From Bacteroidia bacterium (GTDB lineage: Bacteria; Bacteroidota; Bacteroidia; AKYH767-A; OLB10), in assembly GCA_039931675.1 (NCBI GenBank), contig JBDTRM010000170.1, positions 2,374 to 66,373 of the forward strand: a DNA stretch of 64,000 bases, given 5' to 3'. Shown piece after piece: positions 2,952-53,381 of the stretch (positions are counted from its first letter, which is position 1; every line of letters begins with the position of its first letter). Position numbers and translations under genes: made by a program. The notes under the pieces are model-generated. The model was given only the letters and a program-made list of their open reading frames with translations, was not told the DNA's origin and made no database searches.

Positions 2952-2981
2952 CGACCCTTTTTAAAATTAATACAAAATACA

Positions 2982-3431: not shown

Positions 3432-3440
3432 TAATCAGAA

Positions 3441-3827
3441 ATGGAAATCACCCATACAATAGGACGCAGAAAAACTTCAGTAGCCCGCATTTACATGCAG
3501 CCGGGTTCAGGTGCAGTTAAGGTTAACGATAAAGACTATACAACTTACTTTCCTTCATTGCCTTTGCAATACGCAATTACGCAGGCTTTCAATGCAACCA
3601 ATACAAAAGATCAGTATGATGTAATTGCAAACGTTATCGGTGGCGGAGTCACCGGTCAGGCACAGGCTATTCGTTTAGCAATTTCACGTGCTTTGTGCAA
3701 AATCAATCCTGAGCATCGTGCTTTGTTGAAACCGCTTGGTGTTTTAACCCGCGATCCTCGTATGGTTGAACGTAAAAAACCGGGACAGAAAAAAGCACGT
3801 AAACGCTTCCAGTTCTCTAAACGTTAA
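3441..3827 (+). CDS. rpsI: 30S ribosomal protein S9
   Basis: 'GRRKTSVARIY...GGGVTGQAQAIRLAISRAL...RDPRMVERKK...' is the canonical S9 sequence. It lies immediately downstream of rplM. Confidence 0.95.
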   Translation: MEITHTIGRRKTSVARIYMQPGSGAVKVNDKDYTTYFPSLPLQYAITQAFNATNTKDQYDVIANVIGGGVTGQAQAIRLAISRALCKINPEHRALLKPLGVLTRDPRMVERKKPGQKKARKRFQFSKR

Positions 3828-3840
3828 TCTTTAACATTCA

Positions 3841-19400: not shown

Positions 19401-19983
19401 AACAGTAACTGTAACTAACAGTGGCGGTTGTACAAGTTCTTGTTCTCTAAAGATAATTGCTCAACCATTGCCAACTTGTTTAATCACAGGAAACAGTACG
19501 GTTTGTAGTGGCTGTTCAACACCATGGTGTGCGCCTTCAGGCATGTCTGCCTATTTATGGAATACAGGTGCAACAACTCAATGTATTAATGTGAGTACTC
19601 CGGGAAGTTATACAGTAACCATAACAAATAGCAATGGTTGTAGCAGCAGTTGTAGTAAAGCTTTGAGTATAGCCCGAATGGCTAACTTTTATGGTACAGG
19701 ACAGAATAATGGTGCAGGTATTGAATCAACTGCTTATCCTAATCCTTTCAATTCAATAACAACAATTGAGTTTATGCGCTCAGACAAGGCTGCTCATGCA
19801 ACAATAGAAATCTATACTCTTTCGGGAACTAAGGTGACTACAGTATTTGATGGCGATATTGAAGCCCAAGTAAAATACCAGGCCAGTTTTAATGCGAAAG
19901 ACCTCGCTGATGGTATTTACATGTACAGGCTCATAACCGGTGATTATGTTATTAATGAAAAATTGATTCTTATCAGACAATAG
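7435..19983 (+). CDS. giant (4182 aa) T9SS-secreted repeat adhesin: signal peptide, Ig-like units, about 29 SprB-type repeats, about 23 Cys-rich 70-aa units, type-A T9SS CTD
   Basis: Uninterrupted 12.5-kb ORF. The signal peptide is 'MRKLYTFLIVFTILIPQTAIKA'. 'C(N/F)G..(N/D)G...........GG..PY.Y.W......(T/Q).....GL.AG.Y.V.(V/I)TD..GC' repeats are the SprB-repeat pattern. The C-terminus 'YPNPFNSITTIEF...GIYMYRL' is a Por/T9SS sorting domain. Confidence 0.9.
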   Translation: MRKLYTFLIVFTILIPQTAIKAEVVSSLKADFTTNSGINQKETAVSQSLKMAPPIGITGSLSFCTGSSTVLDAGPGYISYLWNNGSSNQTLTVSVGGTYTVTVTDTNSIVTVDSVTVTENPNPTPTISGNLSFCTGSSTILDAGSGYSSYLWDNSSTNQTLTVNTASPYTVTVTDGNGCSGSTSVTVIENLLSTTNLAADGPLVFCDGGTVNISADAGYSAYNWSTGQSTQSVDINTSGTYTVTVTDANSCTTSTSVTVTVNPNPIINIVSQTNVDCNGNATGIFEVSASGGTGPYKYSLDGGPYQSSGIFGVLAVGNYLVSVIDSATDCSSSIIINVTEPDAITAISSQVDLLCYDRPTGSIDITVFGGTLPYTYDWSNGSTDEDISLLVAGFYTVTITDANGCIYSNVYEIIQPTQITIGTQQTNVSCSYGADGTAFVDVDGGTPGYTYLWDDGQTDQFAFGLDGGLHTVTITDANGCDTLMTFLISVPPQLNSSSVATDVSCYGACDGSITLNIYGGTPYSVGALYDVVWNTIPVQTGPTATGLCAGTYTAIITDSAGCVKYHVETIDEPTQLVVSITPDPANCNGASNGEATANVIGGTPLYFYIWSDGQLTQTATGLPAGTYTVTVTDYNGCSATKSVIIGQPTSINVSGVITNVKCNGAITGKVILTITGGSGGYTYFWNTLPVITTKNLNNVAAGTYTVIVTDNSGCTVSATFTITEPFPIACNGTVNDVSCNSTNNGSIIISPTGGTSPFTIIWSNGNTTTSNTGLLIGTYTVTITDINNCTTSCTFTVVQSPGMTINGSVQNVTCFGASNGHITAQPTGGISPYIYLWSNGGTNQTITGLSGGTYTVTVTDSVGCTNTASFTVLEPAELSCICNANVHNVSCFGGSDGSITAQPIGGTPPYSYVWSNGAFTQTISGLIAGTYTVTITDASGCQKIGVVQVNQPTQLFATISCVNNATCFGNNNGSACVTGFGGTPPYTYSWNTIPIQTTFSATGLTGGTYTATVTDANNCTATASVTITQPSTSVSCSITKTNVVCFGQSNGSATVNPTGGTPPYSYLWNTSPIKTTKTVLGLSAGTYTVVVTDSKGCSSNCSITITQPPQLLALASVTNVTCNGGTNGAIDLTVTGGNPPYSYNWSNGATTQDLTGLSAGSYQVTITDNKGCIAILNFVIIQPSHLSCSTIATNVSCNGGSNGSGTVTATGGLPPYSYIWSNGGINATETGLPAGTYTVTVTDANGCTTTCSLSVTQPPVLSCNVVLIQNETCNGHNGQLQVNATGGTSPYSYSWTTSPVQTTAVATGLSPGTYSVLVTDSKGCNTICSGTVGGTLTVTCNITGTNVTCNGGNNGTATVNPSGGTPPYTYLWNTATAATTASVSGLTAGNYTATVTDANGCTSNCSIIITQPALITILISANNVTCNGGNNGNATANASGGVPPYGYLWSNGQTTHTATGLIAGTYTVTVTDASGCTKTASTTITQPSAISCSTTSTNVSCFGGNNGTATVTTSGGTGALTINWNTIPAQTSLTATGLTAGIYTVTITDINGCTSSCTAEITQPTSSVSCTTSLINNATCYGGNNGSASVSASGGSAPYSYNWNTIPVQTTSTATGLSAGTYTVTVTDALGCTSACTVVIGQPSQLSCTVNPINTSCGLDNGQVTVIPNGGTPSYLFLWSNGSTDQTLTSLPAGTYTVTVTDANGCTSTCEGSVNSSSEVIFTTIHTNLTCNGVCNGTANVDQILGGVPPYSYLWSNGSTNASATLLCAQTYTVTVSDVTGCSATATVVITEPTPIVLTFTNVINVACNGGNNGQAKVNPTGGTPAYTYLWSNGQTTQTATGLVAGTYSVTVTDSKGCTAVDSVLINQSGGLTYTQSQTNVSCNGGNNGTATVNPSGGTPPYSYLWSNGQTTQTATGLSAGHYTVEISDANGCNIIADFDITQPTALSCGISQSNPSCNGSSDGFATVVASGGTTPYTFLWSNGQTTQTATGLSAGTYTVTVTDANSCTSSCSVTLTNPSVISCSVSTTPVSCSGGNNGTATVTPTGGTPPYTYLWSNGQTTLTATGLSLGTYSVTVTDQYGCSSSCSGSVSEILPITISFINVVNSTCGLNNGSAEAVASGGTPPYNYVWSNGTLGSTIINVGGGTYTVTVTDANGCSGIDSLILTETSALSITLSGTDPSCFGGSDGTVTVVVTGGSGVYTYQWNSVPAQTTSTATGLTAGTYCVLVTDQDGCTAYDSVKLVNPPLLLCSVTPTDASCSLNNGSVTVTPTGGTLPYSYLWSDGSTDATITGLGAGTYTVTVTDGHNCTTSCSATVNATNSPSCLITGNSTICSGGSTQWCAPAGLASYLWSTGATTQCIAVSATGTYTVTVTNASGCTSSCNKTLTTGTLPSCLITGAGSICTGSSTQWCAPAGLASYLWSTGATTQCITVSASGTYTVTTTNTSSCTKSCSKTLTLKALPNCTITATGSLCATGSSQLCANAGMASYLWSTGVTTQCITVTIGGTYTVTVTNANGCTSSCSKIVTGGSPITAVVITKTNVSCNGGSNGNACVTSITGGTSPYAYLWSNGITNSCIINLSVGTYTVTVTDANGCTKTKVTTITQPAFLSCSIAITKNPTCGICDGKARVTATGGTPAYHYSWNTVPVQTTRIATGLCAATYIVIVTDAKGCTTACSVTLTTATAPSCLITGNGSICSGSSTQWCSPAGASFYLWSTGATTQCITVSIAGTYTVTTTNSSGCSSNCNKILIVNAPPSCTITGSSSVCLGSTQWCAPAGLAGYLWSTGATTQCITVSTSGTYTVTVTDANGCTSSCSKIFTAGVPPSCLITGNGSVCSGSSAQWCAPTGLAAYLWSTGATTQCITVSTAATYTVTVTDVNGCTSSCNKILVVNPLPGCLITGNGSVCSGSATQWCAPAGLATYSWSTGATTQCVIVSTAGTYTVTVTDANGCSSSCSKTLTVNPLPTCLITGNGSICSGSLTQWCAPAGLASYLWSSGATTQCITVSTAGTYTVTVTDANGCTSSCNKILIVNPLPGCLITGNGSVCSGTSTQWCAPAGLTSYLWSTGATTQCITVSVNGTYTVTVTDANGCSSNCSKSLVTGAPPSCLITGNSSVCSGSGTQWCAPAGLTSYSWSTGATTQCVIVSVASTYTVTVTDANGCSSSCSKILTVNPLPTCLITGNGSICSGSSTQWCAPAGLASYLWNSGATTQCITVSAAGTYIVTVTDANGCTSSCNKILIVNPLPGCLITGNGSVCSGTSTQWCAPAGLTSYLWSTGATTQCITVSVNGTYTVTVTDANGCSSNCSKSLVTGAPPSCLITGNSSVCSGSGTQWCAPAGLTSYSWSTGATTQCVIVSVASTYTVTVTDANGCSSSCIKTLTVNPLPTCLITGNSSICSGSSTQWCAPAGLASYLWNSGATTQCITVSTAGTYTVTVTDANGCTSSCNKILTVNPLPGCLISGNGSICSGSSAQWCAPIGLSSYLWSTGATTQCIIVSSAGTYTVTVTDANGCSSSCNKVLTVNPLPSCLITGNSSICSGSSTQWCAPAGLASYLWSTGATTQCITVITAGTYTVTVTDANGCSSSCNKVLTVNPLPSCLITGNSSICSGSSTQWCAPAGLASYSWSTGATTQCITVSTAGTYTVTVTNANGCSSSCIKTLTVNPLPSCLITGNGSICSGSSTQWCAPAGLTSYSWSTGATTQCITVSTAGTYTVTVTDANGCSSSCNKTLTINTPPSCLITGSGSICSGSTQWCAPAGLASYLWSTGATTQCISVSAAGTYTVTVTDANGCTSSCTKALTTGTPPSCLITGNSSVCSGGSTQWCAPAGLASYLWSTGATTQCITVSTAGTYTVTVTNSGGCSSSCTKALTVNALPACSISGKSVICSGESTQECAPAGLSSYLWSTGSTTQCITISAAGTYTVTVTNASGCTSSCTKVVTSSAAPACSFTWTGTTCPCALFCATPGMSGYLWNTGATTQCIEICTTTDITVTVTNSGGCTSSCSLKIIAQPLPTCLITGNSTVCSGCSTPWCAPSGMSAYLWNTGATTQCINVSTPGSYTVTITNSNGCSSSCSKALSIARMANFYGTGQNNGAGIESTAYPNPFNSITTIEFMRSDKAAHATIEIYTLSGTKVTTVFDGDIEAQVKYQASFNAKDLADGIYMYRLITGDYVINEKLILIRQ
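8230..14385 (+). repeat. coding tandem array of SprB-type repeats (27 by my count; two more at about 15040-15480)
   Basis: Counted from recurrences of 'GG(T/S)xPYxYxW' in the translation. The units are ~75-80 aa each and diverged at the DNA level. Confidence 0.8.
14395..19670 (+). repeat. coding tandem array of ~210-bp (70-aa) Cys-rich units 'PSCLITGN(G/S)S(I/V)CSGSSTQWCAPAGLASYLWSTGATTQCITVS.AGTYTVTVTDANGC(S/T)SSC.K.L'
   Basis: About 23 units, counted from the 'WCAPAGL..Y.WS.G' motif. The array is interrupted at about 15040-15480 by two SprB repeats. Confidence 0.85.
16315..17800 (+). repeat. higher-order 630-bp (three-unit) tandem duplication, about 2.3 copies, inside the adhesin gene
   Basis: Direct comparison shows 16501-16880 is base-for-base identical to 17131-17510. 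The flanks differ by only a few substitutions per 60 nt. Confidence 0.9.
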
Positions 19984-31303: not shown

Positions 31304-33508
31304 TTATTCCACAAGCAACTTTTGTGATTGCACCAATTCATTTTGATTGAACAGTTGCAACAAATAAGTTCCGGAATTTAATGATGAGGTTTTCAAATCA
31401 AAAATTGAATTGCCATTAACATTGTAAGTGTTTATTTGTTTTCCAGTTGCATCAATAACCTTTAGGATATATGTTTGACTTTTATCTGATGATGTGATTG
31501 AAATCTTTGCAATATCTTTTGCAGGGTTAGGAGAAATAATTAATTGGGTTGATGAAGTATTTTGTGAACTTGTTTTTTGATTAATGGTAAGTGCGTTCAA
31601 TTGTTTTTGCATTTCAATTAATGCAGATTTCAATTCTTCATTTTGTTGCGAAAGTTCCTGTACCGATTTTACTAATGGGACAACAAATTTTTCATACGAA
31701 AGGCTATAATTGTCAACTTCACTTTCTGGATGATGGATGCCATTAAAATTATATCCGGTTTTTAATGCAGCAGCTTGTACTTCCTGTGCTATGAAACCCG
31801 TTTGTCTTATTGCGCTTGCTTTTTCAAGCCCATCTTTCATCATTTCAATTTGTTCTGTACGCATACTATCAGAAAAATTCTGTCGCAAAAACTCTTCAAA
31901 CTTTTTGTTATCGAAATTATAAACCACCGGACGCAATGCATTTATAAACTCAAGCCCTTTTACTTCTTCTTTTACATTAAATTTAAATCGTCCATCAGAA
32001 GTTGTCCATGAACCTGCATTTGATTCTACAACTGTAATAGAACTATTGCCTATTCTTACTTTATCCGTTGCATTAACAACTGCATAATAGCCAAGTGCCA
32101 TTGCATTTCCTAATGACCCAGTAGCAACGTCAGCATTTCTTCCCAAACCTATATTACCGTACCCACCTACGTTGTAATAAAGTGCTTGATTCCCATTTGC
32201 AGTGTTACCAGAGCCAGTATTTGAAAAAAGTGCCTGGTATCCATTTGCAGTATTATTATAGCCGCTGATATTTGAATAGAGCGCATTGTAACCAAAAGCG
32301 GAGTTGGGGCCTCCGGTGGTATTTGAGTATAAAGCATACATTCCGGCTGCTGTGTTATAAGACCCATCTGTATTATTTTCCAAAGCATTGGCACCAAAAG
32401 CAGAATTGTTGTTGCCATAACCAAAAGAAAAATTACCAGAACCATTCGATAATGCATGATAACCACATGCTGTATTATAGTCTTGACCTATAACTGAGAA
32501 TAATGCACTTGTACCTATTCCGGTATTACCAACACCAGTGGAATTTGAAGACAATGCACCTGTACCAAAAGCGGAGTTCTCTTCACCTGTTGTATTTGAG
32601 TATAATGCACTGTTACCAGAGGCTGTATTATTAAAACCTGTTGTATTTGTTTGCAGAGCATATACACCAGATGCAGAATTTCCATAGCCTGTTGTATTGG
32701 CGTAAAGTGCATAGCTGCCTGTTGCAGTGTTTTCATTTCCGGTTGTGTTTGAAAATAATGTGAGATTTCCGATTGCAGTATTACCTCCCCCTGTTGTATT
32801 GTTATACAATACTTCAAAACCGTTTGCAACATTAGTTCCTCCCGATGTATTATTTATCAATGCTGCATAACCTGTTGCAGTATTATTATTGCCAATGGTA
32901 TTATAAACCAAACTGTTTTCGCCAACAGCCACGTTTGAATTTCCTGTGGTATTGAATTTTAAAACATTGCTGCCTATTGCTGTATTGTAGCCACCCGTTC
33001 CGGTACTGCCTGCACTTTCGCCAATGATGGTATTTACACCTGATTTATAACTCATCATTTTTTTTCCGTTTAAAAACAAGCCGCCTTTGAGATAAATATT
33101 TTTCCACGCAAGTGCAGAGGTTCCTAAATCAAATGTGTTACTCGCATTTGGTTTTAGCGATTGATTAATTGAAGTTGTTGCAAGATTAGATAAGGCAGTG
33201 TTTGCACCCGATGCTGTGCCCGATACGGCAGTCCACGCTGTTCCGTTGTAATAATAAAAACCTTGCGTGCTGTTGGTTTGATAAATCATCAAGCCAGTGG
33301 CCGGTGTTGCAATAGCATCTCGTTGCGTTAGTGTCATGCGTGGAATAAGCAAACCTTTTGCAGTGCTTTTTATTTCAAGCAGGGCAGATGTGTTTGGTGT
33401 TGCCGTTCCAATACCTGCGCTGCCTGTGGCTGGAAATGTGTTTTGTGCAAATACATTTGAATGTGAAATAAACAGAATAATGATAATTCTTAATAGATTT
33501 TTTTTCAT
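31304..33508 (-). CDS. tail-fibre-like T9SS protein: 'KGLLIPRMT' module, NTAxG..AL..NTTG repeat region, peptidase-S74 (endosialidase-chaperone) domain, coiled coil, T9SS CTD
   Basis: '[29 protein letters not shown]...TGFIAQEV...[19 protein letters not shown]' matches the S74 intramolecular chaperone pattern (SD.R.K...L..LRPV.Y......G.IAQEV). The C-terminus '[14 protein letters not shown]...GTYLLQLF' is a CTD. Confidence 0.8.
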
Positions 33509-33568: not shown

Positions 33569-35743
33569 TTACTCCACAACCAACTTTTGGGATTGCACCA
33601 ATTCATTTTGATTGAACAGTTGCAATAAATAAGTTCCTGAATTTAATGTTGAAGTGTTCAACTCAAAAACAGAATTGCTATTAACATTGTACGTTTTGAT
33701 TTCCTTTCCAATAGCATCTATAACTTTTAGCATATAGGTTTGAATTTTATCAGATGATGTAATTGAAATTTTTGCAACATCTTTTGCAGGGTTTGGAGAA
33801 ATGCTTAGTTGAGTTGATGAACTGTTTTGCAAACCTGTTTTTTGATTGCCGACAATTGAGTTCTGTTGTTTCATTTCAATGAATGCAGCTTTTAATTCCA
33901 TTATTTCCTTTTTCAATATTTCGTTCTCTTGCGAAAGCTCCTGGATTGATTTTACAACAGGCACCACAAATTCAGCATAACGCAAGCCCATTATTTTGCC
34001 GCTCTTATCCACACCGCTGAAATCATAATTTATTTTTTTTGCCGATGCTTCAACTTCTTGCGCAATAAATCCTGTAAAGGCAATTTTTTCAATGTCATAT
34101 TTTTCAGGATAAGAACTGCTGTCATTAATTCCTGTCAATTCATTTTCCTTATCCAAATCGAAATGATAAGTAACAGGGCGCAAATCATTTATAAATTTTA
34201 AGCCGGGCACATTTTCTTTAATTTCTTTTTTAATTCTTCCATCAGAAAAATTTGTCCAGCCAACTTGTCCGCCTATACTGCTCACTGAATTGTCGCCCAG
34301 TCGTATTTTGTTTGAGGCATCTACAATTGCTTCGCTGCCAATAGCGGTAATATTATTAAAAGTGCCGACAAAGGTTGTAGGGTTTGCTTGCCAGCCAACC
34401 GCTGTATTTTTTTGGCCTGTAGTATTCCAGTTTAGTGCACGTTGACCTATTCCAACATTACGATAGCCAGTCGTATTATATTCAAATGCACCATAACCCA
34501 CAGCTACATTATCACCACCGGTTGTGTTGGAAGACATGGCTCCATAGCCCATAGCACAATTTCCACCCCCAGTTGAATTGAATTGAAGCGCACCAGAACC
34601 AAATGCAGAGTTCCCACTAGCATTAGGGCCATTAGAATTTAATAATGCATGATGACCGCATGCAGTGTTATCTCTTCCGATTTCATTGCTGTAAAGTGCT
34701 TTAAATCCAAAGGCAGAATTGCTGTAACCGCCAGTATTAAATAAAAGTGAGCCATATCCAAAAGCAGCATTGGCATACCCTGAGTCATTTTGATAAAGCG
34801 CGTATGCACCGGTTGCTGTATTTTGAGTTCCGGAAATGTTTACTGACAATGCTGCAAATCCGATTGCCGTATTTTCATCAGCGTTATTAATTCTTAATGC
34901 CGAATTGCCAATAGCAATATTGTACCGACCTGTTGTATTATACTGCATAGCACTTTTTCCAATAGCAGTATTATATGAACCTGATATATTTGAAAATAAC
35001 GCAAGTGAACCGATGCCAATGTTACTATTGCCTGTGGTATTATCATACAATGCTTCAAAACCATTAGCTACATTATCGTTTCCAATATCATTATTTATCA
35101 ATGCTGCATAACCGGTTGCAGTATTATTATTGCCTGTTGAATTATAATACATACTTAGTTCACCTACACTTACATTTGAATTACCTGTTGTATTGAAATG
35201 CAACACATTTGTTCCAATGGCTGTATTATATCCTCCTGAACCGCTGCTACCAGCGTTCTCGCCAATGATTGTATTTACACCGGCTTTGTAGCTCATCATT
35301 TTTGTTCCATTAAGATAAAGTCCGCCTTTCAAATACATATCCTTCCACGCAAGAGCAGCATTTCCCAAATCAATTGTGCCATCAACATTTGGTTTTAGTG
35401 TTTGATTAACTGCCGTAGTAGCCGCAAGATTTGATAAGGAAGTGTTAGCTCCTTTTGAAACATTGCCCCATGCTGTTCCACTATAATAATAGAAACCCGG
35501 TGTGCTGTTGGTTTGATAAATCATTAAACCTGTTGCAGGAGTTGCAATGGCATCTCGTTGTGTTTTTGTCATTCGTGGGATAAGCAAACCTTTTGTGGTG
35601 CTTTTTATTTCAAGAAGTGCAGATGTGTTAGGCGATGCTGTGCCAATACCTGCACTACCTGTTGCAGGGAAAGTGTTTTGTGCAAATACATTGGTATGTG
35701 CAGCAATCAAAATCATTATGATGCTTAATAGATTTTTTTTCAT
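33569..35743 (-). CDS. tail-fibre-like T9SS protein, paralogue of 31304-33508
   Basis: Same architecture, with '[30 protein letters not shown]...TGFIAQEV'. The N-terminal ~90 aa and the CTD are nearly identical to the paralogue, while the central repeat region has diverged. Confidence 0.8.
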
Positions 35744-35912: not shown

Positions 35913-36767
35913 ATGAAAAATAAACTACTTACAATATTATTGATAATAAGCTTTAGCAACTTAAGTAAAGCACAAATACTAAATGGCGGTTTCGAAAACT
36001 GGAATGCCGGATTACCGGTTGACTGGTGGGGTGTCGTCATCCCTCCTTATAATTTATTAACACAAACTAACGATGCACACTCCGGTAGTTTTGCTGTTAA
36101 ACTACAAGTTGAAGATTTAAGCGGGACAGCAATTGCATCCCCACTTGCAACAGGTGATGGAGCCACTACCACTCATTCCTTAACGTATGTACCCGGAAGC
36201 GTTTCTTTTTGGTATAAACTAAATCCTGTTGGAGGTGATTATCTTTCACTTACTGCACTTGTTTATTCCGGGGGTACGGGCACGGGAGTTGCTATTCAAC
36301 AGATACCCGCAGCTACAAATTATACCCTTTATACTGCACCAATTATGTATGGTGGTACTGTTCCACCAACTGCTGATTCAATTGCCATAATTTTTACAAT
36401 TGCCAATGCAACTGGTTCTCCCACAATTGGCACCGAAGCTAAGATTGATGATATATCAACAAGCATCAGTTCCGGATTACAATCACAAAATTTGTTGAAA
36501 AACAAATGGACTATCAACCCTAATCCTGCAGATCAAACAGCAACTGTAAATTTCGAAAGTGTAGTTAATGGTAATGTAATATTCAGCATTACTAATGCAA
36601 CCGGAAAAATGGTTTATCAAAACAAGAATGTAAAAATTATGGCAGGCAATAATTTGTTCCCATTGAATACAGAAAAATTTAAACCAGGCATGTATTTCTG
36701 CACAATAGAATCAGAAGGGAAAACAGCATCAAAATCATTTTTTATAAATCATGTTGAAACTAAATGA
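35913..36767 (+). CDS. T9SS-secreted hypothetical protein (type-A CTD)
   Basis: The signal peptide is 'MKNKLLTILLIISFSNLSKAQ'. The C-terminus 'INPNPADQTATVNF...GMYFCTIE' is a CTD. Confidence 0.7.
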   Translation: MKNKLLTILLIISFSNLSKAQILNGGFENWNAGLPVDWWGVVIPPYNLLTQTNDAHSGSFAVKLQVEDLSGTAIASPLATGDGATTTHSLTYVPGSVSFWYKLNPVGGDYLSLTALVYSGGTGTGVAIQQIPAATNYTLYTAPIMYGGTVPPTADSIAIIFTIANATGSPTIGTEAKIDDISTSISSGLQSQNLLKNKWTINPNPADQTATVNFESVVNGNVIFSITNATGKMVYQNKNVKIMAGNNLFPLNTEKFKPGMYFCTIESEGKTASKSFFINHVETK

Positions 36768-37204
36768 AATGTAAATTTTAATTTGGTTTCTAAAGCTTCA
36801 GAATTTAATTAACAATTACTTGTACTTTAATTTTAGAATTTTAAAATGTAGTGTTACAACAAAAAATTATTTAAACTCATCAATCGAATAACCCACATGC
36901 ATTACTTTTGATAAAATCAAATGGAGAAAGTCCCTGGTGCAAACAAAGACAGAATCACAATTTTGCTTTTGTTGCTTTTCATTGGGTGCTGAGTATCTAA
37001 CTGCTATGCCGATTATCATTTATGGTGTTATGGAACTTTTTAAGGTATTTGAGTTCATCTGTTTAATCTTGATTCAGTCCCCTTTGTTTGATTTTATTAT
37101 TAAAAGTTATCCGATTTGTATGGTTAGAGTTCAATCTAAAAGCGGTGAACTAACAGGGGAACAGGGATTTACATTTATTGCCGTGCTTGTCCTTAAAAAC
37201 ATTT

Positions 37205-40200
37205 TCATTCAACTTTTAACTCTTTTACAAAAGCCTCATCCTGCAACAATTTATCAATAGCACCTTCCAGTTCATTTATTAGCTTATCGGTGTTTTCAAA
37301 TAAAACTGGGAAGTGCTCTATTTCTTTTAATAGTTCTAAAAAATCAAATCGGCTATTTGCATCAGTTTTTCCCTGGGCTTTTGGCAGGTCTATATCTTTC
37401 TGGAATATGTTTATTCTTGGCATCTGCTTATTCTCAAATAAGGATTTGGCAAGCTTAAATTCTTCTGAAGAGTATTTGCCAACCTTAGAATAAAATAGCA
37501 TCATGAATAAATTACATTGCTGAATTTCGAGATTATAGTTATCCTGCGAGCGAAGTGATTTACCAACATGCTTCCCATCTTCCCATATTAATAGCTCAAT
37601 TAAAAAGCCCTTTTTTCTTAATTCTTTGTTTTTTCTGCCGAGTGCCTGCTCTATTTTTTCTCGTTCATTTATAAGTTCATTTGAAGAAGCCAGAAACAAA
37701 TTAAGTATCCGAAATTCAGCAGAGCCTTCCCTTACCACTTTTTCTTTTAGCAGAAGGGTTTGTCCTTCCTTATACTTCTCAAAGACAAAAGTGTTTTCAA
37801 GGAGTTCTATCACATTCAATGTTTCTAAAGAATTATCACATTCCACTTCATACCTCTCTTTTTCTAAACGGAATTGGAGATTAATTAAGTCGAAATAATG
37901 CTGCTTGTTTTTTCCGGTTCGGCAACCTTCACATATACAAGGTACTTTTTCCTTGTACTTAATTCCCTTGTAGTCCGCATGCAACGCCCTGAAGGTTTTC
38001 AATATTACAGTCATCATTCCCTTGCGGTTAGTTCCCTGCGTTCGAATATAAAAAGCATCCCGGCCCTGTAATTTGGTTTTAGAAACTTCAGCAAGAGCTT
38101 CGTCTTCCCAATTAAGAATAACCCCGTATCGCCAAACAAGAGTTCTGCCCTTAGCAATATCTGCGTAACGGGTAACTATGAATTGGGTTAATAATGCTTT
38201 GGGTAAAAATTCGTACTCAATATACAATTCCAGTGAGTCTTCCTCTGGCCATGAAAAATCCTCTGGTCTGCCAGGTGGTAAAAGTGGCGGTGTTACAAAC
38301 TCGTCTTTGCCGGGTAATTGGTAAGCCAGCTTAAACTGTTTCATCAATTCTAATAGCTGTGGGCGCATATCTTCATATTCAGGACTATCCCAAATTCGCT
38401 TTAGATCTGACTGGTTAAAAAAACCGCATTTATGTTCCGCTACTTCTTTATCATCTAAAACCCTATATACTGCATCTGTTGCCCATTTATTATTAAGAAT
38501 GATATACTGCTTTAATAGTTCACTCTTTTGGTAATGGAGGCAATCGCCCACTTTATGCAAAACAGAACTCAGGATTAAGGCACTTTCCCTTTCGGGGAGA
38601 TTATTTTCTTTACATATTTTAAGGTATTCATGCAACGTTATATACTGATCATTTCTCCGTTCATTTAAAATTCTACGGATCGCTGCCCAATTCGAAGGAA
38701 AGGTATATTTTGTATGGGGAAGGGTTTGGGCAAGTAAATGAATGTATTTTTCTGCAGCTTGGAAGTCTTGTTTTGTTCCTAAATTAACGGTGAACACTTC
38801 CTTTAATAATTCAGGAAATTGTTTTTTCCAATAATTGCTGTCAAAGCTGCCCATACCGATTCCTGTCTTAAATTCATTCAGCACCAATACGAGAGGACTG
38901 CCTTCCCCAAAAAGTGCCGCAGTTTGAAACCAATCATCATAGTCAGTAGTCATATTTCCACTTTCTGCTACCATAACGTACAAGCTGCTTTCAGTGTAAA
39001 ACAGTTGATGTAGTGTTTTGTACTTGTCCTGGCCGGCAAAGTCCCAGATATTTATTTTGAAATCCTTACCATTGGCTAAAGGGAAACTATACGCTCCAAT
39101 TATAATATCAACCCCTTGTGTACGGTCAGCTTGTGTTGGTAATTCTTCGCCTAATAGACGATTAGCAAGAGATGTTTTGCCTGATCGGCCATCACCTAAT
39201 AGGATCAGTTTAGCTTCATTTAATAATTCCGTACCGCTTTTTCTGCTTTGATCAAAATATTCCTGTATTGCTTTATTGCCCTTTTTAATGATATCGGGAG
39301 GAGGATTTGTAAAGGGATTATTATCAACGTTAATACGCCTTCCTGTAGCATCCTCCCATAACGTACTTATATTAAAATCAATTTTCCACTTAATTGGAAG
39401 ATCTAACCGTAATAAATATTCTGATATTTCAGTTAGTTGGTTATCGTTTAAATGGAGAGAAGTTAGTTGAATGAGCTGTTCTAAACCTTTCATTTCGGTG
39501 ATTTGGTTATGGCTTAAATCAAGAATAGTAAGTTGTTTGAGCTGTTCTAAGCCTTGTATTCCGGATAGTTGGTTTTGGTCTAAAGAGAGAGAAGTTAGTT
39601 GAATAAGCTTTCCTAAGCCTTTTATTTCTGTAAGTTGGTTATCGTTTAAAACAAGATCTGTTAGTTGAGTGAGCTGTTCTAAGCCTTGTATTTCGGTGAT
39701 TTGGTTATGGCTTAAATCAAGAGTAGTAAGTTTTGTGAGCTGTTCTAAGCCTTTAATTTCGGTGATTTTGTTATGGTCTAAAAGGAGCCCAGTTAGTTGA
39801 ATGAGCTTTTCTAAGCCTTTTATTTCTGTGAGTTGGTTACTACCCAAATCAAACAGAGTAAGGTGAATTAGTAATTCTAAGCCTTTTATTTCTTTGAATT
39901 GGTTATTGCCCAATCGAAGCATTGTTAGTTGAGTGAGTTGCTCTAAGCCATTTATTTCCGTGAGTTGGTTATCGCTTAAATCAAGATTAGTAAGTTTTGT
40001 AAGCGGTTCTAAGCCTTGTATTTCGCTGATTTGGTTACCGCTTAAATTAAGTGTAGTTAATTGAGTAAGTTCTTCTAAGCCTTTAATTACTGAAAGTTTA
40101 CCACCCAAATTTGGCTCAGTAGGTGGAGTGAGCGATTCCAAACTTTTTACTCTTCTATGGATATTGTCCTCCGACAAATCAAGCTCAGATAATTGAGAGA

Positions 40201-40576
40201 GTTTTTCAAGGCCTTTTATTTCTTTGAATTCGTTATTGCCTAATCGAAGCTTTCTTAATCGAGTGAGTTGTTCTAAGCCTTTAATTTCGGTGAGTTGGTT
40301 ATCCCTTAAACCAAGAATGGTTAGTTGAGTGAGATTATCTAAGCCTTTTATTTCTTTAAGTTGGTTATTGCTTAAATCAAGATTAGTTAGTTGAGTGAGC
40401 TTTTCTAAGCCTTTTATTTCTGTGAGTTGGTTACGGCTTAAATTAAGTTCAGTTAATTGTGTGAGCTTAGAAAACTCCAAAGGGATTTCAGTTAATTCCA
40501 ATTCAGATAAATCAAGTGTAGAAGCATTACTTTTTTTGGCTTCTCGTATTCTGTCTAAGGCAATTTTTAATGACAT
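37205..40576 (-). CDS. ROCO protein: LRR array, Roc (Ras-like) GTPase, COR, and a C-terminal DUF4062/TIR-like module
   Basis: About 16 tandem 22-aa LRRs ('LTQLT.L.L..NQLTEIKGLEQL'). The P-loop GDGRSGKT lies at nt 39173-39196 (aa 461-468) and DFAGQ at nt 39029-39043 (aa 512-516). A COR-sized region follows, containing 'PCICEGCRTG'. The C-terminus reads 'ILNLFLASSNELINERE...LLIWED...CNLFMMLFYSKVGKYSSEEFKLA'. Confidence 0.8.
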   Translation of the reverse strand: MSLKIALDRIREAKKSNASTLDLSELELTEIPLEFSKLTQLTELNLSRNQLTEIKGLEKLTQLTNLDLSNNQLKEIKGLDNLTQLTILGLRDNQLTEIKGLEQLTRLRKLRLGNNEFKEIKGLEKLSQLSELDLSEDNIHRRVKSLESLTPPTEPNLGGKLSVIKGLEELTQLTTLNLSGNQISEIQGLEPLTKLTNLDLSDNQLTEINGLEQLTQLTMLRLGNNQFKEIKGLELLIHLTLFDLGSNQLTEIKGLEKLIQLTGLLLDHNKITEIKGLEQLTKLTTLDLSHNQITEIQGLEQLTQLTDLVLNDNQLTEIKGLGKLIQLTSLSLDQNQLSGIQGLEQLKQLTILDLSHNQITEMKGLEQLIQLTSLHLNDNQLTEISEYLLRLDLPIKWKIDFNISTLWEDATGRRINVDNNPFTNPPPDIIKKGNKAIQEYFDQSRKSGTELLNEAKLILLGDGRSGKTSLANRLLGEELPTQADRTQGVDIIIGAYSFPLANGKDFKINIWDFAGQDKYKTLHQLFYTESSLYVMVAESGNMTTDYDDWFQTAALFGEGSPLVLVLNEFKTGIGMGSFDSNYWKKQFPELLKEVFTVNLGTKQDFQAAEKYIHLLAQTLPHTKYTFPSNWAAIRRILNERRNDQYITLHEYLKICKENNLPERESALILSSVLHKVGDCLHYQKSELLKQYIILNNKWATDAVYRVLDDKEVAEHKCGFFNQSDLKRIWDSPEYEDMRPQLLELMKQFKLAYQLPGKDEFVTPPLLPPGRPEDFSWPEEDSLELYIEYEFLPKALLTQFIVTRYADIAKGRTLVWRYGVILNWEDEALAEVSKTKLQGRDAFYIRTQGTNRKGMMTVILKTFRALHADYKGIKYKEKVPCICEGCRTGKNKQHYFDLINLQFRLEKERYEVECDNSLETLNVIELLENTFVFEKYKEGQTLLLKEKVVREGSAEFRILNLFLASSNELINEREKIEQALGRKNKELRKKGFLIELLIWEDGKHVGKSLRSQDNYNLEIQQCNLFMMLFYSKVGKYSSEEFKLAKSLFENKQMPRINIFQKDIDLPKAQGKTDANSRFDFLELLKEIEHFPVLFENTDKLINELEGAIDKLLQDEAFVKELKVE
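39422..40519 (-). repeat. 66-bp DNA-level tandem repeats encoding the LRR array
   Basis: The words 'ttctaagcct(t)t(t/a)atttc(t/g)gtgagttggtt' recur with 66-nt spacing. One unit is degenerate ('DLSEDNIHRRVKSLESLTPPTEPNLGGKLSV'). Confidence 0.8.
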
Positions 40577-40900
40577 AATTGGAATTTATTTTCGATAAAT
40601 TTTAAGTGAGTTCAGGCGTTCTCTATCTCACCCGCAGGAGTTTTCGATAACAATTAAATATCCACAACAAACCTAATAAAACTTTCGCTTATCAGACATA
40701 CAATTTATGGATAACAGAACTTTGCACCCTCCCGTTCCTAACCCTCCACATACCCCCCAATTGTAACCCTTCCGCAAAACCAATCTCAACACAATAAAAT
40801 AAAATCGCGTAGCACAAAAAAGAATAACCTGTTGAAGGAATCTATTCAAGATACTGTAATTCGAAGTCCAGTAAACAGTAAATGTTTCGGGTAATATCCC

Positions 40901-41845
40901 CTACTTGTAAATTTTTTTCCCTGCCCTGTATTTAGCAAGATTGATAAGCAAAACGCTTGCAAGTATAATTACCAAACCAATTATTTGAAGAGCAGAAATT
41001 TTTTCGGATGCAAAGAACACTCCAAGCAAAACGGCTACCACAGGATTAACATAAGCATAAGTGCTCACCTGCGCGGAAGGGCGCACCTGGAGCAACCACA
41101 CATAAGCCGTATATGCGGCAATGGAGCCAAAAAGAATTAAATAGAAAAGTGAAAGCCATGCTTCAACTGAAATATTTTGCCATTGTAAATGTTGAGGTTC
41201 TCCGAGCAAAAAAGAAACCGGTACGAATGGAATACCGGCAGCAAACATTTGCCATCCTACATTTACCGTGTTGGAGCCTGAAGTAGCTTTATATTTTGAA
41301 TAGATAGAGCCGGCTGTCCAGCTAAAGTTTCCTCCAAGCACCAGGAGCATTGCGCCCAGCTCAACATGATTACCGGTAACAGAAAATAAACTGCTTATCT
41401 TTTCACTGAATAGAAATACAATTCCGATAAGGCCGATAACTAACCCCATAACCGTAGATTTATTTGTAAAGTTCTCTTTCCATTTTTGCTTATCCATCAA
41501 CACAAACCAAATCGGAGCAGAAGAAATCAATATAGCCACCAGCGCACTCGGTAAATATTGTTCAACCCATATCACCACTCCTGTGCCAAGCGATAAGGTG
41601 AAGAATCCGCTTATAACTGATTGTTTAATATTCTTCAGGTTAAAGAGTTTGTCACCTCTGAAAAAACTCCACGCTAACATTAAAGTGCCTGCAATCAGAA
41701 ACCGTAATGCTCCCATTATCATGGGAGGAAAACCTTGCAATCCTATAAGAATAAAAAAATAGGTGGAGCCCCACACTATGTAAACTGTAGCAAATGAAAG
41801 TATAACCAGGAAGGGGGATGCGATCTTGTTTTTTGAATCTGTCAT
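40901..41845 (-). CDS. EamA/DMT-family transporter
   Basis: 314 aa with about 10 TM segments in two similar halves, the typical EamA architecture. Confidence 0.75.
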   Translation of the reverse strand: MTDSKNKIASPFLVILSFATVYIVWGSTYFFILIGLQGFPPMIMGALRFLIAGTLMLAWSFFRGDKLFNLKNIKQSVISGFFTLSLGTGVVIWVEQYLPSALVAILISSAPIWFVLMDKQKWKENFTNKSTVMGLVIGLIGIVFLFSEKISSLFSVTGNHVELGAMLLVLGGNFSWTAGSIYSKYKATSGSNTVNVGWQMFAAGIPFVPVSFLLGEPQHLQWQNISVEAWLSLFYLILFGSIAAYTAYVWLLQVRPSAQVSTYAYVNPVVAVLLGVFFASEKISALQIIGLVIILASVLLINLAKYRAGKKIYK

Positions 41846-41878: not shown

Positions 41879-42178
41879 TTATTCCTGCATTCTGCTTTTT
41901 AAGTCCATTCTTTCATGAAGGATTCTCAAAATTTCGATTTCTCTGAAGTTAGCCTGGCGATAAAATACAATGTGTTTTCCTACGCGAATTCCTAATAATT
42001 CTGTGGAAATTTCTTCGTAATGTTTTCCGATATCTGGATTTTTTGCTATTTCTTTAAAGGCTGCAATGAGAAGCTCATAATATTTGTCAGCTTGATTTTC
42101 TGACCAGGCTTCGTAAGTGTAATTCCAAATTTCAGAAAGGTCATCTGAAGCTTTATTAGTTAAAAAATATTTAGCCAT
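41879..42178 (-). CDS. parE: type II toxin, RelE/ParE family (ParE)
   Basis: 99 aa. 'L...A..DL.EIW.Y......E.QADKY...L...F..I...P..G........LLGIRVGKHIVFYR....EIEILRILHERMD' fits the ParE pattern. It overlaps the upstream antitoxin gene by 8 nt. Confidence 0.8.
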   Translation of the reverse strand: MAKYFLTNKASDDLSEIWNYTYEAWSENQADKYYELLIAAFKEIAKNPDIGKHYEEISTELLGIRVGKHIVFYRQANFREIEILRILHERMDLKSRMQE

Positions 42179-42431
42179 TCTTTCTTCTACCGGCTTTTAA
42201 TAACTGTAAGTGCTTTTTAGGATTGAAGTTTTTTACAATTCCACTTTCAATGCCTTCCTGAATTGCATTTTTCAGAGCTACAACTTTGTTTTCTTCCTCC
42301 TCTAATAGCCGTAACCCTGCCCGTATTACTTCACTTGCATTTTTATATCGTCCTTTAGATATCCTCTTCTCCACAAAATCTTCAAAGTAGTTTCCTAATG
42401 ATACAGAAGTGTTTCGCCTCATAATTTTCAA
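42171..42431 (-). CDS. parD: type II antitoxin, ParD family (ribbon-helix-helix)
   Basis: 'RNTSVSLGNYFEDFVEKRISKGRYKNASEVIRAGLRLLEEEE' is the ParD/COG3609-type signature. The start may be the Met at 42422. Confidence 0.8.
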   Translation of the reverse strand: MKIMRRNTSVSLGNYFEDFVEKRISKGRYKNASEVIRAGLRLLEEEENKVVALKNAIQEGIESGIVKNFNPKKHLQLLKAGRRKNG

Positions 42432-43298: not shown

Positions 43299-45197
43299 TT
43301 AGCAATACCTCGGCATAGTTAATTCAATTATAGTTCCCTTCTCAATAACAGAATCTATTTTAATCGTGCCTTTAATTTCTTCAGCACGATGTTGCATGTT
43401 ATTCAATCCTCCGCGGTGTTTTATTCCATCATCATCAAAACCTTTCCCATTGTCATCAATTTTCATGTGAATGTTTTTCTCATAAAAAGTCAGTGAAAGT
43501 TTTGCAACAGTGCATTGAGAATATTTAGAAAGATTATTCACTGCTTCTTTAAATATCAGGTACATGTTATTCTTCACTTCCATGTTGAGCCTGCATTCCA
43601 TTTTCTCTACTGGGAAGTTAAATACGTAATCAATATTTTTTGCTTCCAATATTGTCGTTGCATATTCTCTCATGCGGCTCATCACTTCTTCAATGGTATC
43701 GTTACCCGGATTAATGTTCCATATAATATCACTCATATTATCTAACAGGCGCTGGCTACGTTCATTTATTTTTTCTAAAGATAATTTTGCTTTTTCATCA
43801 CCCGTATGATGCAAATTGGTTTGAGCGGTGCGGCTTAAAATATTTATGCTGCTAAGTGTGCTACCTATATCATCATGCAAATCGCGGCTAAGCCGGTTGC
43901 GCATTTTTTCCATTTCTATTTTACTTTTCAGCTGGTTTCTGTTGATGAGTAAAACAATTAGTAATACCAATAAGATAGAACCAACAATAAACGTATTGCG
44001 AATGAGCTTTTGTTGTTGAAGTTGCTGTTGGGTTACAATATCTTTTTGATTCTGTTCTAATTCCCGGATTTTATTTTTTTGAACTACATTATTAAAACTT
44101 CTTTTTGCTTCAAGCTCAAGCAATTTATTTTTCTCATCATTTTCAATCAGGCTATCCTTCAAATCTATATGAAGCCGGTAATATTTGATTGCCTCAAGGG
44201 GTTTGTTTAGTTTTTCAAAAGTGGTAGCAAAATCTAAATATGAACCTGAAACTCTGCCAAAGCTTTTTATACGCTGCGAAATTTTCAAATGCTCTTTCAA
44301 ACATTCTAAAGCATTATTGTATTGTTTTAAATCAACATACACTTTTGCTATATTCCGGTAGCAATCCGCTACACCACCTGAATCGTGGAGTGCACGGGAA
44401 TAAAATTGAGCCTTGTAGTAACATTTAATACTCTCAATAAATTTTTTTTGAGTATTGTAAACACCAGCTTTATTAAAAACCGTGTTCGCAAGTTGATTTG
44501 TATCCCCACTTATTTTTAGTAACTCCTCAGCCTTTTCATTATAGAGGATTGACGAATCATACTTTGAAGTAAAGTAATAAATGATGGCAATTTCAGAGTA
44601 TGATTTTGCAGCGTCTTTCAAATTGCTTTCGATTGCTCAAGCTTTAACGACTGTCTGAAATTATCCATAGCCAAAGAATAATTTTGAAGTACAATTTGAT
44701 TCCAGCCGATACTATACGCTGCTTTTGCGATTTCATCAACATCATTTTTGAGTAAGGCGATGTTCATCCATTTTTGCCCATACTCAAGTGATTTTTGATT
44801 TGCGCCATTTAATAGAAAAACATTAGAAAGCTTACCAAAATTATGCATGATGGTAGAAGAGTCCTTTTCTTTTTCACTTATGGTCAATGCAGAATAATAA
44901 TTGCTGAAAGCCTCAGAGTAATTTTCCTGTTCCAAAAAAATATCACCAATATCTCTATAGCAATTTGCTATGGCTGATTCATTCAAAAGTTTCTCAAAAA
45001 TGTTCTTTGCTTCAACAATTAATTTATATGCGGCTTCCCAATCTTTTGATTTTATTTTACAAATTCCTTCATTTCGCAGGGCAACAGCTTTGAATCAATC
45101 TTACTTTGCTTTTGCGAAAAGCTTTTAAAAGAACAACTAAATGCCAACAGGAAGGAGAGCAGAAAAGAAAAAGGTTTAACAAGCGTTTTGTTTTTCA
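43299..45197 (-). pseudogene. TPR-sensor histidine kinase (HisKA_3 + HATPase), third paralogue, disrupted by two frameshifts
   Basis: A signal-peptide fragment 'MKNKTLVKPFSFLLSFLLAFSCS...' (45051-45197) ends in TAA. The TPR part continues in another frame (44618-44986 and upstream). The kinase part (43299-44621) starts only at a TTG overlapping that frame's TGA (sequence TTGA). The combined length is about that of the intact paralogues. Confidence 0.7.
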
Positions 45198-52391: not shown

Positions 52392-53381
52392 ATGTACATT
52401 TGTCGGATTATGATGAAAATTGACATATCCGATATTAACAAAATGCAAGCAACCTTTGACAGGCTGTTTGAAAAAAAGGCAAAATTGCAGGCTGGCAGGC
52501 CCTTGCCGCAAAGCGCCTTAAAAAAAATCAGAGAAGACCTTACTATTGAATGGACTTACAATTCAAACAGTATTGAAGGTAATACACTTACTCTTCGTGA
52601 AACAAAAATGATTTTACTGGATGGCATTACTGTAAAAGGGAAATCGCTGCGCGAACATTTTGAAGCGCACAATCATGAAAAGGCTATTAACTATTTGTAT
52701 CAATTGGTTAATAAAGATTACACCTTGAGAAGCATTGATATTTTATCACTTCACAGTTTGGTACTGCGCAGTATTGAAGAAGAATATGCAGGCAGGCTTC
52801 GCAATGCTGGTGTAAGAATAGTTGGTGCAAATTTTACACCTCCTAATGCAAGCAAAGTTTCAGATTTGTTAGATGAGTTGATTGATTTTGTAAATATAAA
52901 TCCTTTGGGGTTGAATGAAATTGTTTTGGCTACTGTGTTTCATCATAAATTAGTTTGGATACATCCTTTTTTTGATGGCAATGGAAGAACAGTTAGGTTG
53001 GCTATGAATTTATTATTGATGCGTTCAGGATTTCCTCCTGCTATTATTTTAAAGCATGATAGGAAAAAATATTATGAAGGGTTACGTCAAGCCGATATGG
53101 GTAACTATCAAAAACTTGCTTTATTAATGACGCAGGCTTTAGAGCGAACATTGAATATCTATTTAAATTCATTGCCCGGCAATAGCTATGATTATGTAGA
53201 GATTTCAAACTTGCTTGAAGAAGAGCAATTGCCTTACGGGCAAGAGTACATTAGCTTATTGGCACGCAGTGGTAAAATTGATGCTCATAAAGAAGGTAGA
53301 AACTGGCTTACGACAAAAGCGGCTGTTACTAATTATATGGATAAAAGGAAAAGAAAACGTGGGCGAGATTTAATTCAATGA
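52392..53381 (+). CDS. Fic family protein (class II, with N-terminal intramolecular inhibitory helix)
   Basis: The Fic motif is 'HPFFDGNGRTVR' (HxFx[D/E]GNGRxxR). An upstream 'SNSIEGN' fits the [S/T]xxxE[G/N] inhibitory motif. The start may be one of the Mets at 52410-52415. Confidence 0.85.
   Translation: MYICRIMMKIDISDINKMQATFDRLFEKKAKLQAGRPLPQSALKKIREDLTIEWTYNSNSIEGNTLTLRETKMILLDGITVKGKSLREHFEAHNHEKAINYLYQLVNKDYTLRSIDILSLHSLVLRSIEEEYAGRLRNAGVRIVGANFTPPNASKVSDLLDELIDFVNINPLGLNEIVLATVFHHKLVWIHPFFDGNGRTVRLAMNLLLMRSGFPPAIILKHDRKKYYEGLRQADMGNYQKLALLMTQALERTLNIYLNSLPGNSYDYVEISNLLEEEQLPYGQEYISLLARSGKIDAHKEGRNWLTTKAAVTNYMDKRKRKRGRDLIQ

Follow-up and report, generated by a model that had tools for sequence, protein, structure and literature searches.

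What might a bacterial protein do in which leucine-rich repeats (LRRs), a Ras-like GTPase and a TIR-like domain are joined in a single chain? The question is raised by one gene in the window, i.e. the whole 64-kb stretch of Bacteroidia bacterium DNA that was analysed here (GenBank assembly GCA_039931675.1, contig JBDTRM010000170.1). Open reading frame (ORF) and Pfam analysis shows an intact single ORF at 37205–40576 on the minus strand, which encodes a complete protein of 1123 residues plus stop with the layout LRR–Roc–COR-A–COR-B–linker–TIR-like domain of the DUF4062/DrHyd type. The initial annotation of this DNA had given the same frame without its strand. For none of the bacterial LRR-Roc-COR proteins is a biological function established, though one of them, CtRoco, is the main structural model for LRRK2. 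The answer that we consider fairly probable is that the gene represents a single-gene, GTPase-gated immune sensor that depletes nicotinamide adenine dinucleotide (NAD+), NLR-like in its design and with Roc-COR in place of the STAND ATPase. We regard the ROCO architecture and the identities of the domains as near-certain, which cannot be said of the immune role or the substrate, and we infer the sensing of a ligand by the LRRs, the coupling of the GTPase to the tail, NAD+ as the substrate and abortive infection as the outcome.

The identity of the protein as a ROCO protein, as the initial annotation had it, is borne out by Pfam, for which the gathering cut-offs are 27 bits for Roc, 35.3 for COR-A, 27 for COR-B, 24.7 for DUF4062 and 28 for TIR_2. 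Roc is matched at residues 456–568 (E 1.4e-23, 83.9 bits), COR-A (PF16095) at residues 627–766 (38279–38698, E 4e-43, 147.1 bits) and COR-B (PF25497) at residues 780–927 (37796–38239, E 9e-31, 107 bits), the three forming the contiguous tandem of a ROCO protein over residues 456–927; these positions, and those of all other protein features below, lie on the minus strand. In the same scan of the full protein the LRR families LRR_4 (E 4e-56) and LRR_8 (E 2e-30) were found far over their cut-offs. In addition, the LRR-Roc-COR part can be aligned with CtRoco (phmmer, E 9.4e-103 to 6hlu_A and 4.3e-102 to 8r4b_A), and the Roc-COR part of LRRK2 matches as well, with an E of about 1e-24.

The Roc (Ras-of-complex) GTPase domain extends over residues 453–625 (38702–39220) when the Pfam match is combined with the alignment to the Roc domain of CtRoco. 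It contains a G1 motif or P-loop, GDGRSGKT (residues 461–468, 39173–39196), whose GxxxxGKT pattern is kept across the relatives, the switch I threonine T486 within DRTQGVDI (39119–39121), where the T.G[IV] pattern is likewise kept, and the G3 or switch II motif DFAGQ (residues 512–516, 39029–39043); P-loop and switch II stand exactly where they had been reported before. P-loop, switch I threonine and DxxGQ are shared with CtRoco (6hlu, 8r4b and 3dpu, the biochemical model for LRRK2), as is the order LRR-Roc-COR-A-COR-B. The G4 position is different, since the alignment to 6hlu places NEFK (residues 567–570, 38867–38878) where CtRoco reads the canonical NKID, so that the aspartate for guanine specificity is absent. 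Roc is the best-conserved domain among the orthologues (74–89% identity) and is therefore clearly under selection; COR follows with 67–84% identity.

The LRRs occupy residues 18–391 (39404–40525; Pfam and repeat register) and are the presumed ligand sensor. Seventeen units stand in a strict 22-residue register, 15 of them regular and 2 degenerate (residues 128–171), which agrees well with the earlier count of about 16. The repeats are visible in the DNA beneath them as a tandem repeat with a 66-bp period (39425–40467, 15.8 copies, 71% matches). They are the most variable part of the protein among orthologues, with 30–68% identity and differing repeat numbers. Superimposed on the 66-bp unit, the DNA at 39594–40434 shows a super-period of 330 bp, or five LRRs (2.5 copies, 75% matches), a pattern that points to the duplication of a five-repeat block.

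The last 169 residues (955–1123, 37208–37714), beginning with FRILNLFLASS, are the part on which the functional question turns, and Pfam, AlphaFold2 and Foldseek together assign them to a TIR-superfamily domain of the DUF4062/DrHyd type, in agreement with the earlier proposal of a DUF4062/TIR-like tail. Among 16 close homologues of the tail, Pfam found DUF4062 in 11, NPHP3 in 6 and TIR_2 in 1 (best DUF4062 E 3.9e-5); among 10 more distant relatives DUF4062 and TIR_2 were found in all and NPHP3 in 9, the TIR_2 matches being sub-threshold except for one with 29.2 bits against a cut-off of 28. Two of the relatives are named 'DUF4062 domain-containing protein' in RefSeq. The family is a large one, as a profile search with the tail gave 4879 cluster representatives at E <= 1e-3, including 684 at E <= 1e-30. 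Two AlphaFold2 models of the tail, built from 16 and 32 sequences (pLDDT 83 and 91; pTM 0.86 for the second), both predict a five-stranded fold of five β-α units in the order βA-αA-βB-αB-βC-αC-βD-αD-βE-αE; the loop that joins βB to αB, where TIR domains have their BB loop, is disordered in both. For both models the top match of Foldseek against the PDB was the TIR domain of the plant protein RRS1 (E 5.4e-4 and 4.5e-5; TM-score 0.58–0.65 when normalised by target length). A purely helical extension of COR, against which the initial annotation had wanted its proposal checked, is thus not what the tail models as.

Conservation within the tail family is concentrated in a few positions. F961, S964, S965, E967, R972, W998, E999, Q1011, K1031, G1033, E1039, P1053 and F1079 are invariant in both alignments of relatives, E1038 is nearly so, and the signature motifs that had been named from the single sequence are among what is invariant. 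The catalytic glutamate of TIR NADases lies at the start of a helix equivalent to αC, where E1039 stands. In our models the E1038-E1039-F1040 stretch (37457–37465) forms the N-terminus of αC, and by conservation and position E1039 is the presumed catalytic glutamate, matching the 'E-Y' region of DUF4062 proteins and the glutamate of the WCxxEL motif of TIRs. The motif set described for DUF4062 comprises an N-terminal aromatic strand, a Q/W/E motif and a stretch of acidic and S/Y/T residues that includes the catalytic glutamate (bioRxiv 10.64898/2026.06.25.731849), and the tail offers a counterpart for each: F961-LASS, W998-E999-D1000 at the end of strand βB (37577–37585) and KYSSE1038-E1039-F. 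We infer this residue-by-residue equivalence, because no solved relative of the tail was found by sequence. Judged from its profile relatives and motifs, the tail is a DUF4062-like member of the TIR-DrHyd superfamily, though it falls under the thresholds of PF13271 and PF13676.

The position of the domain differs among the proteins related through it. In the 150 best relatives by domain, all four parts of LRR-Roc-COR-tail were detected in about 14 representatives, and in a few further ones either the LRR or the COR escaped detection. Many of the remaining proteins are fragments consisting of COR and tail, and in most of the others the domain is N-terminal. Among relatives of this N-terminal type, 42 longer proteins were scanned and many turned out to be NB-ARC, NACHT, AAA_16 and tetratricopeptide repeat (TPR) proteins. 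The tail family hence occupies, at the N-terminus of STAND proteins, the place where NLR-like proteins have their effector. The names of the clusters to which the full-length relatives belong ('internalin A', 'GTPase SAR1 family protein') are uninformative.

The novelty that the initial annotation had implied for this architecture does not hold, because a paper of 2021 had already presented it as a predicted conflict system. There, Kaur et al. (eLife, PMC8195603) list "LRR+AP-GTPase+COR+DrHyd/TIR" proteins as predicted counter-invader systems, with multiple paralogues in e.g. Haliscomenobacter. Our own scan of species-representative genomes (one per species) gave 373 confirmed relatives, of which the best 80 were used for the comparison of loci. 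One listed protein, WP_050710728.1 (Dysgonomonas sp. HGC4, 1196 residues, '+DrHyd'), corresponds by organism and exact length to the ORF of locus L019, whose C-terminus matches the tail from the window with E 1.3e-23, and an Alkalinema entry of the list likewise matches locus L038. The exact architecture with this tail family was therefore already catalogued as a predicted immune receptor. The protein from the window combines the features of the AP-GTPase counter-invader class, namely variable N-terminal LRRs, Roc, COR and a C-terminal effector of the conflict type, and it shares with the class as represented by WP_050710728.1 the domain order, the variable LRRs, the stand-alone gene and the bias towards Bacteroidota and Cyanobacteria. 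It differs in that overall identity to WP_050710728.1 is only about 32% and in that it belongs to a Chitinophagaceae-centred clade with the non-canonical NEFK at G4; the class itself is a computational prediction.

For the enzymatic output, the closest characterised systems are compared here by description only. KpSwz, Eva01 and human TEP1, all with DUF4062, hydrolyse NAD(P)+ by means of a catalytic glutamate and cause abortive infection, and these NADases stay auto-inhibited as long as they have not been rearranged by a component of the phage, which for KpSwz is the portal protein (bioRxiv 10.64898/2026.05.01.722283, 10.64898/2026.06.25.731849). Like our protein, Swarozyc (KpSwz) and Evangelion (Eva01-04) possess a TIR-like five-stranded β-α effector with analogous motifs, and they likewise consist of a single gene that combines an effector with a variable sensing part. 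In those proteins, however, DUF4062 stands at the N-terminus with a short auxiliary region of helices behind it, whereas here it lies C-terminal to an LRR-GTPase module of 930 residues. Roc, COR, LRR and GTPase are unmentioned in the text of the two preprints.

For the switch, the model is CtRoco. Its LRR folds back on COR in a closed, nucleotide-free dimer, which GTP opens and monomerises via COR-B (PMC11052575), the domain that mediates dimerisation in both CtRoco and LRRK2 (PMC11052575). The nucleotide-dependent release of the LRRs and the dimer/monomer cycle of COR-B are presumably shared by the protein studied here. The earlier statement that proteins of the CtRoco type stop after COR is only approximately right, as CtRoco has about 150 further, uncharacterised residues behind COR (PMC11052575); between these and the tail from the window no similarity was detectable.

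A comparable combination of repeat sensor, NTPase switch and TIR-like effector is found in STAND NLR-like proteins (bNACHT/Avs-like proteins as well as human TEP1, NWD1, NWD2 and NPHP3). These use an AAA+-type ATPase and carry the effector at the N-terminus, whereas in our protein a Ras-like GTPase with COR takes that place, the sensor being N-terminal and the effector C-terminal. Pfam found no NACHT, NB-ARC or AAA_16 match in the ROCO protein, its NTPase being the Ras-like Roc; it shares the logic of NLRs but is not a STAND NLR. A precedent for a bacterial Roc-COR protein with a C-terminal effector in a cell-death and defence pathway is the Roc-COR-CHAT protease of Runella, which activates a bacterial gasdermin (bioRxiv 10.1101/2021.06.07.447441). 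There a CHAT protease is the effector and depends on a gasdermin substrate encoded by a second gene; here the effector is TIR-like and no partner gene is present.

Put together, these comparisons suggest the following sequence of events. At rest, the variable LRR solenoid would fold back on Roc-COR, as in CtRoco, and hold an inactive nucleotide state. An invader-derived ligand, most likely a phage protein, would bind to the LRRs and free them, upon which the nucleotide state and the COR-B-mediated dimer/monomer state would change. The tail domains, which are tethered by a linker of about 27 residues, could then assemble into an active arrangement, and Glu1039-dependent hydrolysis of NAD(P)+ to ADP-ribose and nicotinamide would drain NAD+ and abort the infection. 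The linker (residues 928–954, 37715–37795) is predicted to be flexible, with pLDDT below 50 in the first AlphaFold2 model, and it is the least conserved segment among orthologues (14–67% identity); the tail that it carries is again better conserved (58–81%).

Several points weigh against this reading, and they concern the tail, the switch and the genetic setting. Scanned alone, the tail reaches DUF4062 (PF13271) with E 0.006 and 17.3 bits, which is under the cut-off of 24.7 and sets it apart from the DUF4062 domain of Swarozyc and Evangelion, and Pfam reports no TIR or TIR_2 match (PF01582, PF13676) for it; the only other Pfam match in the tail fragment is residual COR-B at its start. When the tail was compared with PDB sequences, by sequence and by profile, nothing meaningful came up. 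The similarity to TIR domains in Foldseek amounts to TM-scores of only 0.51–0.65 and Ras-like Rossmannoid folds come close behind (TM 0.4–0.5), so that the fold evidence for a TIR-like tail is moderate and the fold search not decisive; because of this, the assignment of the tail rests on fold, profile matches and motif conservation jointly. Finally, the residue that follows E1039 is a phenylalanine, compared with a tyrosine in the Evangelion proteins.

As regards the switch, the coupling of GTPase and effector is speculative, because higher-order oligomers are usually required for TIR NADase activity, whereas the ROCO cycle as known leads from dimer to monomer. Moreover, among 67 related Roc domains NEFK is found at G4 in 16, NEKx[D/E] in 20 and the canonical [NT]KxD in 14, and NEFK is kept within the Chitinophagaceae-type clade. 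Because NEFK replaces the canonical NKxD in this clade, guanine-specific binding by its Roc domains is uncertain, and their nucleotide specificity may differ from that of textbook small GTPases.

As regards the setting, the window offers an accessory-looking position but no dense defence island, as it holds only parDE and, 12 kb from the ROCO gene, a Fic gene. No PADLOC model matches the ROCO protein, a result that says little because the 2023 library contains no ROCO or DUF4062 model. In favour of the reading, a scattered minority among the neighbours of the homologues gave PADLOC matches (RT-protease, SAVED-TIR, viperin, LmuA, PbeA, Avs1b, phospholipase effector and others), a number for which there was no control set and from which enrichment is not established. 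In the literature we found no experiment on a bacterial ROCO-TIR or ROCO-DrHyd protein.

With these points in mind, we put forward with some hesitation, as a possibility that falls a little short of an even chance, that the Chitinophagaceae-type clade of ROCO-DrHyd proteins is a working immune receptor in which Roc-COR, not a STAND ATPase, gates a TIR-like NADase and in which NEFK reflects a relaxed or altered nucleotide specificity. If true, this would be the first functional assignment for a simple prokaryotic LRR-Roc-COR protein, and its easily measured output would reveal directly how the Roc-COR cycle governs an enzyme placed behind it, Roc-COR being the module that carries mutations of LRRK2 in Parkinson's disease. 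A ROCO protein with a TIR-like NADase output would give a simple read-out of the path from LRR release, nucleotide state and COR-B dimerisation to the effector. The NLR-like antiphage receptors would gain a branch that is gated by a GTPase, beside the STAND-based Avs and bNACHT, and the newly recognised NADase effectors of the DUF4062 type (Swarozyc, Evangelion, human TEP1) would be extended to another sensor chassis. Computational prediction had arrived at this idea in 2021, and the value of the present locus is that of a clean, intact, single-gene experimental candidate.

The alternative that survives best concerns the substrate. The tail might be a DrHyd nucleotide N-glycosidase, similar to Rcl or nucleoside 2'-deoxyribosyltransferases, that acts on deoxynucleoside monophosphates, nucleosides or another pool instead of NAD+. 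Kaur et al. class the tail family as DrHyd and not as TIR, the substrates of the DrHyd superfamily are broader than those of TIR (PMC9503650), and the nucleoside 2'-deoxyribosyltransferase 8qc0 is indeed among the fold matches of the tail (E 2e-3, TM 0.48). The best structural match is nevertheless a TIR domain and not a deoxyribosyltransferase, and KpSwz, TEP1 and Eva01, the sole members of the DUF4062 group that have been assayed, consume NAD(P)+. We therefore regard a glycosidase of this kind as unlikely and retain NAD+ as the preferred substrate.

A further question is whether an NAD+-consuming sensor would act on its own, and here the neighbourhoods of the homologues are informative. All-against-all clustering of the flanking ORFs revealed no recurrent neighbour family, the commonest cluster occurring at 10 of the 80 loci. 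Metallophos (4), TIR_2 (3), trypsin (2) and patatin (2) were the commonest Pfam families among 144 immediate neighbours. Because no neighbour family recurs, the comparison supports a self-contained single-gene system. A tail that generates a signal, i.e. a ThsB/Thoeris-like enzyme making a cyclic or variant ADP-ribose messenger for an effector encoded elsewhere, accordingly has little to recommend it and seems improbable to us: TIR and DrHyd domains are able to make signals of the cyclic ADP-ribose type (PMC9503650) and some neighbours of homologues have SAVED-TIR, CARF, patatin or calcineurin-like phosphoesterase domains, but the same partner does not return at the 80 loci, the gene in the window is monocistronic with unrelated neighbours, and the characterised DUF4062 enzymes release plain ADP-ribose. 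A Thoeris-type arrangement was also looked for directly, and neither a dedicated effector adjoining the ROCO gene nor a recurrent partner in 36 homologous loci was found.

The distribution of the family bears on whether the self-contained sensor is an immune one at all. The best 80 loci come from Bacteroidota, Cyanobacteria, Planctomycetota, Melioribacteraceae, Cloacimonadota, Calditrichia, SAR324, Myxococcota and Deinococcota, and 57 of them have the whole architecture in one ORF. Several genomes hold 2–3 copies, with up to three tail-bearing copies in one related metagenome-assembled genome (MAG), and the 64-kb window holds a single one. The closest orthologues, with 73–75% identity, were found in MAGs of Chitinophagaceae, Segetibacter and Ferruginibacter, and relatives of Roc-COR were found on 11 plasmids. 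Taken with the type IX secretion sorting domains in genes beside the ROCO gene, these orthologues point to Bacteroidota, and probably to Chitinophagaceae, as the origin of the window; a look-up of the exact protein sequence in public assemblies gave no record. Between the window and the orthologous loci, including those with 60–75% identity, no flanking gene is held in common, nor do the homologues lie in housekeeping surroundings of a conserved kind, the second outcome that the initial annotation had named as speaking against its proposal.

These data also speak to a non-immune role, in which the protein would be a regulatory ROCO GTPase of normal physiology, through which e.g. a signal from inside the cell or from the envelope acts on NAD metabolism, gliding or multicellular behaviour. 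The absence of a defence island around the gene fits such a role, as do its neighbours (cargo of the type IX secretion system (T9SS), EamA and a histidine kinase) and its GC content, which equals that of the surroundings; besides, CtRoco has no established role, and eukaryotic ROCO proteins take part in cytoskeletal and vesicle regulation. A housekeeping regulator is however difficult to reconcile with the lack of synteny even among orthologues of 70–75% identity, with a patchy distribution over the phyla, multiple copies in some genomes and plasmid-borne copies in others, with hypervariable sensor repeats and with the occurrence of the tail family at the effector position of NLR-like STAND proteins, and we give this role a low probability. 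A non-catalytic tail that serves as a homotypic adaptor or oligomerisation module, in the manner of Toll-type TIRs or the inactive TIR of RRS1, and recruits other TIR-like proteins is very improbable, for although the best structural match (RRS1 TIR) is a heterodimer partner and many other bacterial proteins carry the same domain, so that partners could exist, the presumed catalytic glutamate and its surrounding motif are invariant in hundreds of divergent relatives, as is typical of an active enzyme, and a search of all window ORFs with the tail-family profile matched only the ROCO gene and no second copy of the domain.

The same profile was run against the ORFs of the 80 related loci, where the weak matches inspected all had E >= 3 and gave no link to the neighbouring canonical TIR_2 proteins. 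A tblastn search with the tail against 50,697 phage genomes gave no match. On the conjugative plasmid pMB06 of Acaryochloris sp. 'Moss Beach' (L081, 7232–10023), LRR, COR and DUF4062 are annotated as three consecutive ORFs near IS630 and other transposases, either because this copy has decayed or because the gene is naturally split there.

Two other identities were considered for the protein or parts of it and rejected. A secreted, internalin-like LRR protein for virulence or adhesion does not agree with the sequence, in which neither a signal peptide nor a T9SS sorting domain was seen and in which a GTPase of the cytoplasmic type is present; because these export signals are missing, the protein is probably cytoplasmic. 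NCBIfam gave only models for internalin-type LRRs and small GTPases, all far under their cut-offs. A second GTPase fold for the tail was dismissed as well, as the tail has no P-loop or other G motif and its profile matches all belong to families of the TIR clan.

COR-B contains a cysteine cluster, PCICEGCRTG (residues 879–888, 37913–37942). The initial annotation was right about its presence and wrong in placing it at the end of COR, since this part still matches positions 102–144 of the COR-B profile. C881, C883, C886 and C913 are kept in the relatives as PCxCxxC...EC, and with C913 included the CxCxxC...EC pattern is a possible metal-binding knuckle.

The gene is monocistronic, as had been proposed, with non-coding flanks of 324 and 437 bp that agree with the 320–440 bp given before; in the vicinity there are genes for T9SS cargo, an EamA transporter, parDE and a TPR histidine kinase. 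The upstream flank (40577–40900) is the presumed location of the promoter, and a scan with the sigma-70 consensus, which does not cover promoters of the Bacteroidota type, found sites there no more commonly than in shuffled sequence. On the plus strand at 40700–40780, this otherwise AT-rich intergenic DNA contains a C-rich tract, CACCCTCCCGTTCCTAACCCTCCACATACCCCCC, without a match in Rfam. No Rfam family was found in either flank, and terminator-like sites did not go beyond chance. The downstream flank extends over 36768–37204. An ORF of 107 residues with a GTG start (36937–37260, plus strand) is convergent with the ROCO gene and shares the last 56 nt of the latter; it matches no family and is probably not a gene.

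Upstream, the EamA transporter gene (40901–41845) is situated between the ROCO gene and parDE, so that the toxin-antitoxin module is indeed nearby but not directly adjacent, as the initial annotation had it. ParE toxin (99 residues) and ParD antitoxin (86 residues) are encoded in overlapping frames at 41879–42431 on the minus strand, 1.3 kb upstream of the ROCO gene. A histidine kinase with TPR and HisKA_3/HATPase_c domains (43299–44986, minus strand) appears as two ORFs of 122 and 440 residues, both with TPR and with a 4-nt overlap; either a frameshift has split one gene here or two genes are coupled. The Fic protein of 329 residues (52392–53381, plus strand) shows the motif HPFFDGNGR and resembles FICD-type AMP transferases (E 8e-41); this ORF probably accounts for the SoFic and PDC-S04 matches of PADLOC in the window.

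Directly downstream of the ROCO gene lie three genes with a T9SS C-terminal sorting domain (31304–33508 and 33569–35743, minus strand; 35913–36767, plus strand). The first two encode paralogues of about 730 residues that also carry a Peptidase_S74 (endosialidase chaperone) domain, which is typical of tailspike-like fibres. The sole RNA family found in the window is a tRNA-Gln (anticodon TTG) at 2721–2794 on the plus strand; it is far from the ROCO gene, and there is therefore no sign of a tRNA-targeted island insertion at this locus. A giant ORF of 4182 residues is located at 7435–19983 on the plus strand. Its residues from about 2796 to 3828 match GhpA (PDB 9flp, E 8e-58), the so-called 'grappling hook' protein of Aureispira sp. 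CCB-QB1, a predatory bacterium, and a shorter stretch matches a phage tail protein, which suggests a large surface filament or hook protein of the T9SS type.

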